Source: Octopus vulgaris
Taxonomy: Eukaryota
Assembly (NCBI GenBank): GCA_951406725.2
Contig: CATOCA020000001.1
Coordinates: forward strand, 1,116,001-1,180,000
Direction of reading: 5' to 3'
Length of the DNA stretch: 64,000 nucleotides
This document shows positions 13,305-49,653 of this stretch, one piece after another. The notes under the pieces are model-generated. The model had not been told where the DNA came from. It did not search any database and was given only the letters and a program-made list of their open reading frames with translations. Position 1 is the stretch's first letter. Every line of letters starts with the position of its first letter. The position numbers were made by a program, and so were the translations under genes.

Positions 13305-13376
13305 ATTTTCTGTAAACTTGGAAGATTTCGAAAGGATCCTTTTTGGATGGTTGTGATTATATTGTTACTGAGAGAT
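13305..13376 (-). CDS. LRR protein exon (72 nt, phase 2-2): SLSNNIITTIQKGSFRNLPSLQKI
   Basis: Acceptor gttttatgtttcag, donor gtaagt, exactly 72 nt. Matches the typical-class LRR xLxxNxIxxIxxgxFxxLxxLxxL. Confidence 0.85.
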
Positions 13377-13662
13377 CTGAAACATAAAACACAGTTCAAA
13401 AGAAAGAGTATTAAAAAGATTTCTGATAAAATATTAAATCTTGTATCTTTAGAATCATATTAATAAAAAGAGGACGGTGAAGGAGAAAATGGCCGAGATG
13501 ATGTTGATGATGATGATGAGGGGGAGGAGGATGGCGATGTTGATGGTAAATGTTGTAATAAGGACGGTGAGGAGGATTCGGGGGATAATGATGATGATGA
13601 TTATCGAGAACGACGAGAAAGGCTTCGATGAATTGGTGATGACGACGTTGATTTTGCGATGA

Positions 13663-16600
13663 TTTCTTTATTACCCACCAGGGGGCGACATAGAACATAC
13701 AACACAATGACGAATGATTTACAACAATAAATGCGTTTTGGGGTCAATTAAAATACATGGTGAATATCGAGTTCGAATGATGGGACAATTACAAGAACAA
13801 ATTTTTTTTTTTTTTACAAACTGAAGTGGGGCGGGTCTACGGACCCCTCGATCCCCGCCACGGCACTTAACCTTCTGTTTTTTTCTTTTTTACAACCTAT
13901 CTCGTATTTGCGAGGGACCTTTTACTCACCACATTTTTCCACCTTTCGTCAAAAACTTTCTTGCTCAGGCTCCTCCTCTCTAGTTCTATATGTCTTTTCA
14001 GGTGGAATTTAAAATATTCCACCAGACCTGAACCAGAGATGAAGTCGCCTGTTATTAACCCTTTCATCCTTGTCTTCCATACTGCCTGTTTCGCAGTTGC
14101 AACCACAGCGAGAAAACAAAACTTACCTTCTTTCGTTAAGAAATCTGGTGGGCTGATTTTTACAATAGATTCGGCTGATAGCTGTACTCTCCGTTCACCT
14201 GACATCAGTTGTTCGGCACAAACCCACATCCCTGCCACCTCCGAACACTGCATGATCGCGTGCGAGACGGTTTCCCGTTCTCGCCCACCCCTCGCACAGG
14301 TCGGGCTGACTTGGCAACCGTGCCTTGCAAGCTTGTCCCGAACAGGTAAGGCTCCTCGGTAGCACTGCCATGCCAAAGACTTCTGGAAATTATCCAGGGT
14401 CTTCGGCCCGAATGTACGTTGGAACAGACTGGCCAGCTGATTATCGTCGAAACCTAGGGTTTCCCCTAGCGTATCATCGTTACCGGCCTCTACAAACCCT
14501 CTATAAAACACAGCGGTAGAACCACTGCCGCAGGCATTGCCCGAGCGACGGAATAGTCGGAGTACCTTGCGACACTCCGTATACCACGTACCCAACTTTG
14601 ATCTGTGATTATACCAGCCCTCCCGGCCACCGAAACTGGTGAACCTGGGGAACATCTGTTTCGACAGCGGAGACCACACCCGTTCACTACCCAGATGGAG
14701 CCACAGGTGCCTTAGCCTCAGCGCATTTCTGCGCATCATTAGCCACGGCATCCCTAGTCCACACTGTAACGGTTTTTGACAACAGACAGAGCGTCTCACA
14801 AGCGGTTTCGACCCCTTCCACAAGAAGCGAAAGAGCTGTCTCTCCAACTTGCTCAACCACGAATCCGGGCAAGGCACGACGGCAAGGCGGTAGGTGATCA
14901 CCGATGCGATAAACACATTGGCTACCTCCGCCCTACCTTTCAAGGATAGCCACCGCCAAGACCAAGTCTTGGCTATTGCAGCCACCTTGCTCGATACCCC
15001 GCTCCAGTTCTTCTCTATTTGGAGGTCTGGACCGAACCAAACCCCGAGCAACTTAATCGGGCCCTCCGTCCAACGTCCCACGACGCTGTCTGGAGGCATC
15101 GACGTGCCTCTCCAGGTGCCGAGTTGCAAGCCGACCGACTTTTCACGATTAACCTTTCCTCCTGTCACCGTCTCGTACACCTCTATGGCCATGTCTACTT
15201 TACGTAGGTGGTCCACTTCAGTCACGATGATAGTGATGTCATCCGCGTACGCCGAAACCGACATATCACATTCTGGTTGCCTCGGGATGCCGCTCAGTTT
15301 TCGCAGCAGCGGCTCAAGAGCCACTACATACAAAAGCGGGGAGAGCGGACATCCCTGGCGGACCGAGAGCTTGACTTTGAACGGCTTAGAAAGAAAGCCG
15401 TTCACCTGAACTACCGAGTCGACGTTGTCATACATTTCGATGATCCACCTGAGGAAGCCAAGACCCAGGCCGAACTGAGCCAGAACAGGCACCAGGTAGT
15501 GATGGTCGACCCTATCGAAAGCTTTTGACTGGTCTAAATGGACCACTGCCCCTCTTTTGCCGGGATCATTATTTATTCCCTCTAACGTGTATCTAATAAG
15601 ATGGAGATTATCCTGAATGGCTCTGCCTGGTACGGTGCACGTTTGCGCTTTCCCAATCAGTCCATTCGCGACACGCGCCAATCTGTTCGATAACACTTTG
15701 GCCAAAATCTTCAGCTCTGCGTTCAGCAGAGTGATGGGCCTGAAATTATCTATTACGTCCCCCTTGCTCTGGTCCTTCCTGATTAGCGTCACCACTCCCC
15801 GGCGCACAGATCTGGGAATGAACCCATTCTCCTGCCAGTTTGCGTAGACGCCCGTCAGTAAGTCCCCGAACAACTCCGGCATACTTTTATAAAGCTCGTA
15901 GGGTAGACCATCCAGTCCCGGCGCCTTACCCGCACCGCAGTCCGCCATGGCCTCCATTACCTCCCCAAGTGTGATCGGCTCCTCACTACACTTCGCGTCC
16001 TGCAACGAGAGGCGCGGCAGCCCGTCGAGGAGGTCCGTAAGGCCCCTCCTCCTATCCGGTCCGCGGCTCCCCCCAAAATGCTGGGCGAAGTGATCCTGAA
16101 AAGCTTGACACATCTCCTCGGGCTCGTCTGTCAACTTACCCTGTTGGTTCGCCAGAGATCGAATTGTAGCATCATTGCCACGTGGGGCTTCAACCACTCG
16201 GGCCCATCCTGCAGCCTTGATTCCTTCGCTCCCCATTGTGCGTTGTCTAGCCCTGACAATGCAACCCATGTGATTGGCTTCAACGTGCTGGTTAAGAACC
16301 AGTCTCTTGACCTTCACCTGGTCTGCATTGCCAGTTCGCATTGCTTCCTCTAAGTCCTTAACTAGTGTATTCGCCTTCCTAGCCTCTCTAGCTACGAGAT
16401 TTGTACTCTACCTAATGGACTCGTATTTTATGGCTCGCTTGAGGGCATACCACCATTTGTTGTTAACAATGGAACCGGTCAAAGCCCTCTGGATCATTAA
16501 CCTGATCTTGTCCCCGTACTCCTTAATCGCCAAAAGGGACGTATAAAGTTTCCAGTAACCAGGACCTCTATTTATCTTATCTACGTCTAGCCTACAGGTG

Positions 16601-17625
16601 ACCATCTTGTGGTCACTGTAGCTGACCATGTGGAGTTGCGGACTCTTAACTAGGTTCTTATCTACCTTCCTAATTAATATCCTGTCTATGTATGACCTTA
16701 ACGATCCGTCGCTTGTTGACCACGTCCACAGTGGAGCGTCCGGACGTTCCAGTCTATATGGGTCTACCAGCTCAAAACGTCTTAGTAGACTCAGGAAGCA
16801 AGCATTTCCTTTTCTATTTCTGTCTGTTTGCGAGCCTTCACAGTCTACCCGCACATCGCAGATTGTGTTGAAGTCACCTAACATTACTACAGGGTACGAT
16901 GTACTCAGAAACTTTTCCAGATTCCGAAAATAATCACTTTTCCCGTTTCTGGCGGGTGCGTAAACCGCAACCAGCCTGATTGTCTTACGACTGCTGAACG
17001 TCAACTCAACGACGACCAGCCTACCTTCCGGATCTGCAAAAATCAACTTTTTATCAGAAACCCGGTTCTTTTTAACCAGGACCAACACCCCGCTTCCGCC
17101 GCTCGACGGGTTCGGAGAGATAATACTCTCGTAACCGTTGAACAGCGGGAGCAGATCTCTTGGCCCCTTTAACCGGGTTTCTGTGGCAACAACAACATCT
17201 AAATCCCGTGACCTGATGTCGTTTAGGAGGCGCCCTTGCCTCCAGCTCGTCATCAGGCCACGCACATTTATGCATCCTACACAAATACGAGACATTGCTT
17301 CCCTTTTGCCGTGTTTCTTATTTTCCTGTTGCACCTGTGGGGAAGTCCGCCTTAAACAGTGTCTCGTCTAAGTCGTGTCGCGGACCGACTATGTCCCCTG
17401 GGTATTGGCTCTTTAGAATGTTTGAGTTCATTACGTCTATTTTGAATACCTCTGTATTTTTTGATAATATCCGGTACGTCTCCATTCTTTCTGCGTTCGG
17501 TATTTTCATTAAGTCACTCATAAGACTGTCGTTTTTTTTGTTAATTGAGATGAAAACATCCTCTATAATTCTTTTTTGGGGGCTTGTTGTGGAGGATGGG
17601 GAGGCAAAGGAGGACTGAGGGGAGT
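13663..17625 (-). mobile_element. Tx1/L1-clade LINE, 5'-truncated within ORF1, near-intact ORF2
   Basis: APE endonuclease, RT and C-terminal knuckle. A-rich 3' region (poly-T on + at 13802-13815, aataaa near 13665). Confidence 0.93.
13897..17295 (-). pseudogene. Tx1 ORF2 (APE-RT) with a single in-frame stop at 16408-16410
   Basis: INVRGL, VAVYAP, LGDFN, IDRILI, SDH; APGLDGLP, FRPITLLN, DQSKAFD, RQGCPLSP, AYADD. The two ORFs are in frame (66 nt apart). Confidence 0.92.
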
Positions 17626-48660: not shown

Positions 48661-49032
48661 AATAATAATAATAATAATAATAATAATAATAATAATAATA
48701 ATAAAAATAATAATAATAGTAATAATAATAATAACATTAATAATAATAATAATAATAATAATAATAATAAAAATAATAATAATAATAATAATAATAATAA
48801 TAATAATCATAATTATAATAATATGAAGAAGAAGACGAAGTAAAACAACAACAACAACAACAATAACAACGAAGAAGTCGGTGATGAATAAAAAGTAATA
48901 TAAGTAGCAAGAAAACAGAAAAGATGGACAAGCAAAACAATAACAAGAAAATTGGGAATGAGGATAGAAATGATAATAAAAATATATCAACATAAGTAAA
49001 ATTATCAGACATACACACAGACACAAACGTAC

Positions 49033-49162
49033 GAGGGACACACCAAACGTTGTTTTATGTTGTGGACGAGTAGCTACATTAACATCCTTCCTAAAGAAAT
49101 TGAAACGGAATATGCAGCCATCACACTGGACAGTTTGACCAAATTGCCCCAGCTGTAGCTCA
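49033..49162 (-). CDS. Possible 130-nt exon, paralog of 12743-12872
   Basis: Acceptor ttttctatttgtacag, donor gtacgt, open frame ELQLGQFGQTVQCDGCIFRFNFFRKD... Confidence 0.3.
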
Positions 49163-49581
49163 CTGTACAAATAGAAAATGACGACTACCAACTTCAGCAC
49201 GTCATGTAATTGTAGAGTTTAAAATAACTCATTATTGAATCAGTATCTCAAAAGAGTGAGGGTGAATATATTTCTATACTTGCTTCTCTTGAAGTGAGTA
49301 TAACTCTGCATAAATATGTATTTCATAATATACCCACCTATAGACACAAATGCAAACATAGATATTCACGTGCAATCGTACACTCATACACAAAAGGTTA
49401 GACAAATATGGAGACACATAGAGTCACAAACATTTCATAGACATCTTCATACACACACTTACATGAAAATAGTAGCAGAACATTAGTTAGAGATAGAGAG
49501 AGGAAAAGGAAGATCAGAAGACATCAAGTTCCTAGAAAAAAATCATAAATAAAATAATATCAAAAAAATTAACCAACTTAC

Positions 49582-49653
49582 ATTTTCTGTAAACTTTGAA
49601 GGTTTTGAAAGGATCCTTGTGGGATGGTTGTGATCTGATTCTGATGGAGATAT
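49582..49653 (-). CDS. LRR protein exon (72 nt, phase 2-2): YLHQNQITTIPQGSFQNLQSLQKI
   Basis: Acceptor gttttatgtttcag, donor gtaagt, 72 nt, canonical typical-class LRR. Confidence 0.87.

Follow-up and report, generated by a model that had tools for sequence, protein, structure and literature searches.

The window, the whole 64-kb stretch of Octopus vulgaris DNA analyzed here (G000:C31:1116001-1180000; window positions 1..64000), lies entirely inside a single adhesion G-protein-coupled receptor (GPCR) gene of ~391 kb, here called gene C, which runs on the minus strand from G000:C31:1373855 down to ~982750 and was mapped over 464 kb of gap-free sequence. Within the window the gene has two 72-nt exons that each encode one leucine-rich repeat (LRR), exon A at 49582..49653 and exon B at 13305..13376, both on the minus strand; they are the sixth and seventh of nine such cassettes (C6 and C7), and no third LRR exon of this kind was found inside the window. 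The coordinates, strand, and length proposed for both exons in the initial annotation were borne out when the sequence was re-read, as were the strong splice sites: both exons are phase 2 at either end and flanked by tttcag / gtaagt, and the isoleucine closing the exon peptide is a split codon finished by the following exon. Read by hand, the two exons differ at 13 nt, with 1 synonymous change, and 8 of the 13 differences sit in codons 1, 3, 4, and 6, in agreement with the earlier count. Each exon is embedded in a cassette core of 1.1 kb on the minus strand (48826..49923 around exon A, 12551..13653 around exon B), and the two cores share 83% identity.

The exons of gene C follow the order signal peptide/LRRNT, nine cassettes, terminal LRR, LRRCT, cysteine-rich domain, an unnamed domain, HormR, GAIN/GPS, and a seven-transmembrane region (7TM). 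The signal peptide/LRRNT exon lies at 1373.9 kb of contig C31, above the cassettes at 1364, 1326, 1287, 1229, 1191, 1165 (exon A), 1129 (exon B), 1097, and 1036 kb, which are followed by the terminal LRR exon at 1031.6 kb and the LRRCT exon at 1024.1 kb, all on the minus strand. The GPS-domain exon (C31:994851-994982, same strand as the cassettes; PF01825, E 1.7e-12) carries the motif CDHL|TSFAVLM; a GPS cleavage consensus is found in the GAIN domain of adhesion GPCRs. All constant exons of the database adhesion GPCR P0002 map in order below the cassettes at 80-100% identity, and a Pfam scan of this protein places the secretin-type 7TM (PF00002, 7tm_2, E 1.5e-41) and GPS above the cut-off and HRM under it. 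The database proteins closest to the GPS exon belong to Octopus vulgaris and are named 'adhesion GPCR G6-like', and the paralogous proteins P0008 and P0010 are annotated with LRR and 7TM together. In genomic DNA the exon order from ectodomain to 7TM is complete, and RNA joints link LRRNT-type ends, cassettes, and a terminal-LRR-type start. The original proposal of a cephalopod LRR receptor is thus supported by the database homologs of the downstream exons and can be made more exact, the predicted product of the window gene being an adhesion GPCR with a variable LRR array. A receptor of the LGR/GRL101 type or the TLR type was ruled out, the downstream exons being GAIN/GPS/secretin 7TM. The cysteine-rich domain and the domain after it look three-finger-like and SEA-like, but found no Pfam support and no usable match in the Atlas. 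Residues 962-1087 of P0008, in its C-terminal tail, match many dispersed repeats and are likely a transposon piece fused by annotation; a tandem array with a period of ~184 bp lies just downstream of gene C (C31:974377-977139).

The two cassettes described for the window are both real, but they are no mere pair: at least 45 full-length cassettes are spread over four close paralogs, namely 13 in A (C30:18.6-18.8 Mb), at least 5 in B (C30:19.8-20.0 Mb), 9 in C, and up to 18 in D (cassettes are designated by gene letter and number). The full sequence was read for genes A and C but only part of it for B and D, so the counts for the latter two rest on the matches listed. The first search for further cassettes gave 40 matches among 49 candidates (8 on C31, 32 on C30), and searches with the constant exons at >=95% identity gave three LRRNT, four terminal-LRR, and four LRRCT exons. 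Intactness (72 nt, open) is retained by 44 of the 45 cassettes, with 42 distinct peptides, and there are three broken cassettes besides; all 44 intact ones are in phase 2/2 with near-identical splice sites. The wider family includes at least 63 GPS matches (from 124 candidates, many on C29-C31) and at least 41 LRRNT-exon matches, and has a homolog of 71% identity in O. bimaculoides. The LRRNT exons of this wider family differ mostly around the cysteines, with the signal peptide alike, which hints at selection on the cap.

Paralogs B and C are complete genes in the germ line. Paralog A (G000:C30:18572000-18775000), with all 13 cassettes intact, decays past its first HormR exon: GAIN/7TM exons were not found on its strand in the 37 kb without gaps that follow, and its predicted product is a secreted LRR protein. 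The O. sinensis model P0016 likewise stops at the first HormR region of paralog A. For gene D, no LRRNT exon was found in the sequence fetched; its terminal-LRR intron extends as far as a 100-N gap (C30:20120719), and the unplaced contig C39, which carries the 3' half of the gene, resumes at the next base (C39:125000) and fits the gap to the base. An inverted block with four D cassettes (G000:C30:20581171-20804105) is bounded by two 100-N gaps; over 24 kb around D9 and D17 its initial part is 99.2% identical to 20.233-20.257 Mb, after which the two diverge, and the block may be another gene D allele. Since it lies between gaps, misorientation is more likely than a real inversion of the four cassettes. 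Genes C and D themselves are more likely paralogs than alleles, their constant regions being 2.9% apart versus the heterozygosity of 1.22% given, in the available text, for a published O. vulgaris assembly of nanopore reads with short-read polishing (10.1101/2023.05.16.540928). Just below the first gap, C30:20102000-20120000 holds 7TM exons of a more distant paralog (~75% identity).

Nine listed runs from five studies contain half or more of three sampled words, and four runs from three studies with two organism labels (X1, X2, X4, and X7) were compared with exon A. In three of the four, contig depth is restricted to exon A, with the introns uncovered, and cassettes are joined head-to-tail at exact exon ends; such intron-free depth and exact joints in transcript-like contigs uphold the claim of a real spliced exon, here for exon A. 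Because the joints run from exon end to exon start, the cassettes are spliced in tandem. Contigs hold two and three of them in a row, and the loose ends of contigs, translated by hand, read as LRRNT-type ends and one terminal-LRR-type start. X4 and X7 contain the first 47 nt of exon A, a stretch unique among the 45 cassettes, with no mismatch, and X1 contains 43 nt of it. The predecessor of exon A in the listed rows of X1, X2, and X4 ends like C3/C8/D3/D6/D15, not like the genomic neighbor C5, and among the matches listed X7 has two different predecessors for the 5' end of exon A, one of which immediately follows an LRRNT-type end. For paralog A, RNA contigs hold an exact match to the A1-to-A2 junction, in the order of the genome; two further RNA motifs correspond to none of the cassettes or junctions of this genome. 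A comparison of this genome with public transcripts from other animals indicates that cassette order turns over between animals; exon skipping of cassettes is possible.

Growth by copying of whole exon-plus-intron units, proposed from the window, is confirmed in gene C, where 36.8-kb blocks (98.0%) and 22-kb blocks are repeated with their exons. The 22-kb unit holding exon A spans 28204..50172 on the minus strand (C31:1144204-1166172), with copies at 1076321-1098358 (C8) and 1265689-1287753 (C3) at 96.6-96.8%; the exon-plus-intron units of gene C are 25-77 kb. Exons A and B were taken for duplicates of one another, but they are not each other's nearest relatives. In the tree of flanking introns the cassettes of B, C, and D are interleaved, with exon A sister to C9, and exon B to D14 of another paralog. 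Between cassettes, distances measured over the 5' part, the middle, and the 3' part of the exon show no correlation with one another (Mantel rho -0.13 to 0.04), and the introns are tracked by the 5' part only. Of ten cassette pairs with near-identical flanks, seven show 1-3 exon differences and three show 13-14, versus 0.5-2 expected; exon B and D14, with 13 differences in the exon and flanks differing by 1% and 4%, are among the three. Recombination inside the exon evidently also shuffles the variable codons, and unequal crossing-over together with short conversion tracts would be the simplest account of the cassette mosaics.

The pattern resembling diversifying selection, noted for exons A and B, is weak in that pair alone (pN 0.21 and pS 0.12 for nonsynonymous and synonymous differences per site), and the signal comes from the whole cassette set. 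Variability peaks at codons 1, 3, 4, 6, 22, and 23, which are x5, x7, x8, x10, x2, and x3 of the consensus LxxLxLxxNxL, where entropy is 2.0-3.4 bits versus 0-0.7 at seven framework codons. The x positions of this consensus point to the concave sheet of the LRR. At the six variable codons pN is 0.52, versus a pS of 0.10 at the other 17 codons and 0.16 in the intron flanks; framework pN/pS is 0.48. The pS of the six codons is itself elevated (0.37 on 2.8 sites), and at the hypervariable codons 1 and 3 the third position stays T in 41/44 and 35/44 cassettes. Site models were fitted to 43 cassettes, omitting C3 (73 nt) and D17 (a duplicate of D9). With two trees, each combined with two frequency models, M2a was favored over M1a by a likelihood ratio statistic (LRT) of 150-254, at an omega of 7.7-13.4. 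All four fits picked codons 1, 3, 4, 22, and 23; codons 6 and 14 were each picked in two, and codon 11 in one. A false selection signal made by recombination was ruled out by neutral simulations, 40 in all, run without recombination, with recombination in two or four blocks, or with free recombination; none of them rose above an LRT of 13.5, versus 140 for the data in the same pipeline. The site-wise excess falls on the x positions and is not spread evenly over the framework; entropy, pN/pS, site models, and simulations over the cassette set agree with the initial annotation on this point. Judging from the cassette sequences, positive selection acts on the predicted concave-face positions.

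The intron between exons A and B (13377..49581, minus strand, 36.2 kb) is part of the duplicated units and holds no further LRR exon; 93% of it is matched on the same strand (>=500 bp) elsewhere in the gene region, transposon copies counted. Its description as filled with transposable elements holds, given the remnants of LINE, Helitron, and GIY-YIG elements and the transposon-type Pfam matches of 7/7 open reading frames given. A LINE-type retrotransposon encoding endonuclease and reverse transcriptase lies at 13900..17367 on the minus strand (Pfam Exo_endo_phos, RVT_1, and zf-RVT; an 836-codon open frame), and Helitron remnants at 34474..41453 on the plus strand (Helitron_like_N, Pif1_2B, and PIF1). 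A GIY-YIG fragment is found at window positions 23946-24638 and a second reverse-transcriptase remnant at 46605-47126. Near-perfect direct and inverted repeats (97-98%) occupy window positions 53149-54172.

We consider it probable that these one-repeat exons are spliced into the ectodomain of an octopus adhesion GPCR whose LRR arm is rebuilt over generations, under selection for new residues on what is predicted to be the binding face, with fast-changing non-self such as microbes as the likely ligands. In the germ line, the arm would be rebuilt likely by unequal crossing-over and gene conversion, and since every cassette is in the same phase, a cassette could be gained or lost without a frameshift, each such change lengthening or shortening the LRR solenoid by a single turn. 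By analogy with known families, HL|T would be the site of self-cleavage in the GAIN domain, and the tethered agonist TSFAVLM, bared by ligand binding or by force, would switch on the 7TM. The least certain point of this model is the class of ligand, for which a microbial or other non-self origin has about an even chance.

Several points weigh against this interpretation. Within the six variable codons pN/pS is just 1.4, and it is 0.94 in the other 17 codons pooled; the site models were implemented by the author, using scaled branch lengths and naive empirical Bayes, and placement on the concave face comes from the LRR consensus, not from a model of this protein. The runs, none of which is recorded as RNA, are only presumed to be RNA and are made of contigs, which inform on neither level nor strand. 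Some gene D cassettes may be uncollapsed alleles, as the 24 kb at 99.2% suggest, and the gene C copy carries three 1-nt indels. Finally, Ritschard 2019 (PMC6408891) reports expression in nerve cord, sucker, skin, and gill and argues for neural roles. The expansions in that study are highest in the axial nerve cord, suckers, and skin of O. bimaculoides, which would suit a variable arm serving neural wiring or self-recognition among the animal's own cells, like protocadherins, rather than defense. Group 3 expression in C. minor is, however, gill-dominated in the same study (PMC6408891), and continuing strong positive selection with turnover between individuals would fit an arms race better; we hold the neural role to be improbable.

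The indels bear on another reading, that the window gene copy is a recent pseudogene or a source of secreted ectodomain only. They are 1-nt deletions in the GAIN and TM5 exons and the 73-nt cassette C3; the GAIN deletion is common to paralog D and absent in B. Paralog A, lacking GAIN/7TM in the stretch fetched, points the same way, as does, weakly, a search with the LRRNT exon of the gene that scored 0/2 longer database protein candidates. However, at both lesions of the constant region a T run is short by a single T, and XP_036370841.1, an O. sinensis model with the diagnostic residues of gene C, reads through both sites; the mapped exons showed no in-frame stops, and the unique 5' end of exon A is present in spliced contigs. 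The indels are probably assembly errors, and a pseudogene or purely secreted source appears doubtful. Equally doubtful is the reading in which combinatorial or skipping splicing, Dscam-like or like brown-algal ROCO genes, is the main source of diversity within one animal. It would gain from the uniform phase and splice sites, from the two predecessors of exon A in X7 and the predecessor unlike C5 in X1, X2, and X4, and from C3, which if real must be skipped. Yet cassettes join in runs of two and three, leaving no single mutually exclusive slot, the A1-to-A2 junction keeps genome order, and alleles and paralogs can explain the changes of order since other animals were the source of the runs and several of the cassettes in the RNA have no counterpart in this genome. 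Somatic assembly from donor cassettes outside the gene, as in lamprey variable lymphocyte receptors (VLRs), was suggested by 18 cassettes at C30:20.15-21.11 Mb, 4 of them inverted, which first seemed to lie outside any gene, and by the mosaic exons. The apparent orphan donor array was rejected as an assembly break: it closes in its own terminal LRR exon, the intron continues past the gap on C39, and the inverted block lies between gaps. With cassettes that retain splice sites and are joined by splicing, and genes B and C complete in the germ line, somatic assembly is very improbable. Least credible of all, and refuted by the data, is the view that the cassettes are neutral pseudo-exons or reflect a mutation hotspot within duplicated sequence of a segmental kind; the broken cassettes, the one of 73 nt, and the raised pS at the variable codons would agree with this, but nearly all full-length cassettes are in frame with an almost invariant framework, the third positions of codons 1 and 3 are mostly T, simulations never came near the observed LRT, and exon A is spliced.

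The inherited, spliced LRR array preferred here can be set beside several known systems. The octopus cassette family is likely group 3 of Ritschard 2019 (PMC6408891), in which octopod adhesion GPCRs bearing GPS and 7TM form expanded clusters, with LRRs in 5/22 sequences and positive selection at the branch level; the octopod-expanded clusters, some with LRR, also hold true for the matches counted here. LRR exon cassettes, variation in repeat number, and a variable face are not described in the main text of that study as far as it was available, and it found no single site under selection. The gene was called hidden, which is largely fair, since database models of the subfamily hold 0-2 of the cassettes; these models, and a published site test that picked out not one codon, show why the signal was easy to miss. 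A description of these LRR cassettes was not found in the open-access literature.

Brown-algal ROCO genes, in the accessible parts of the reports (PMC3341825, PMC11378527), have one LRR per 72-bp phase-2 exon, a variable number of exons, and positive selection on the concave face, and are candidate immune receptors. The octopus genes likewise have one LRR per 72-nt phase-2 exon in numbers varying among paralogs (13, >=5, 9, up to 18). In contrast, ROCO proteins signal via a ROC-COR GTPase, of which no Pfam match was found in the 4/4 octopus proteins scanned, and the octopus receptors would signal via GAIN/7TM. Alternative splicing of LRR exons is reported for ROCO in the text available, whereas the two predecessors in X7 are equally well explained by alleles or paralogs; the octopus genes also differ in the long units of gene C, and their inverted cassettes are probably an assembly effect. 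Lamprey and hagfish VLRs, as the accessible text describes them (PMC3900441), share 24-residue LRR modules between LRRNT and LRRCT, with variability mapping to the concave surface, and VLR chains are among the PDB sequence matches of paralog P0009. By the same account VLRs are built somatically, in a conversion-like way, into an incomplete gene, whereas the octopus cassettes are spliced exons in germ-line genes with 7TM. Dscam uses one exon per cluster per mRNA, and the octopus contigs carry tandem cassettes instead. With ADGRG6/GPR126 the octopus proteins share the HormR-GAIN-GPS-7TM core, and the database label 'G6' rests on this core only. ADGRG6 carries CUB/pentraxin domains, and ADGRA receptors have a fixed LRR set, unlike the variable octopus array.

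A variable recognition receptor of cephalopods was not found in the open-access literature, and a 2026 review of immune diversification (PMC13428168), in its available text, mentions cephalopods only for blood-cell formation. The octopus locus is a concrete candidate, a signaling receptor. Its predicted binding face has an omega of about 8-13, and the order of its repeats is not the same in the genome as in public transcripts. It opens the questions of how octopuses distinguish microbes or non-self, whether an adhesion GPCR can take on variable pattern recognition, and by what means a 72-nt exon is shuffled across 25-77-kb introns. We tentatively propose an octopus LRR variable-receptor system wired to G proteins, in which inherited shuffled arrays, exon skipping, and membrane and secreted forms might serve to detect microbes or non-self at the skin, suckers, and gills. 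If true, this G-protein-wired system would give invertebrates a counterpart of the lamprey VLRs, with an adhesion GPCR as its base.

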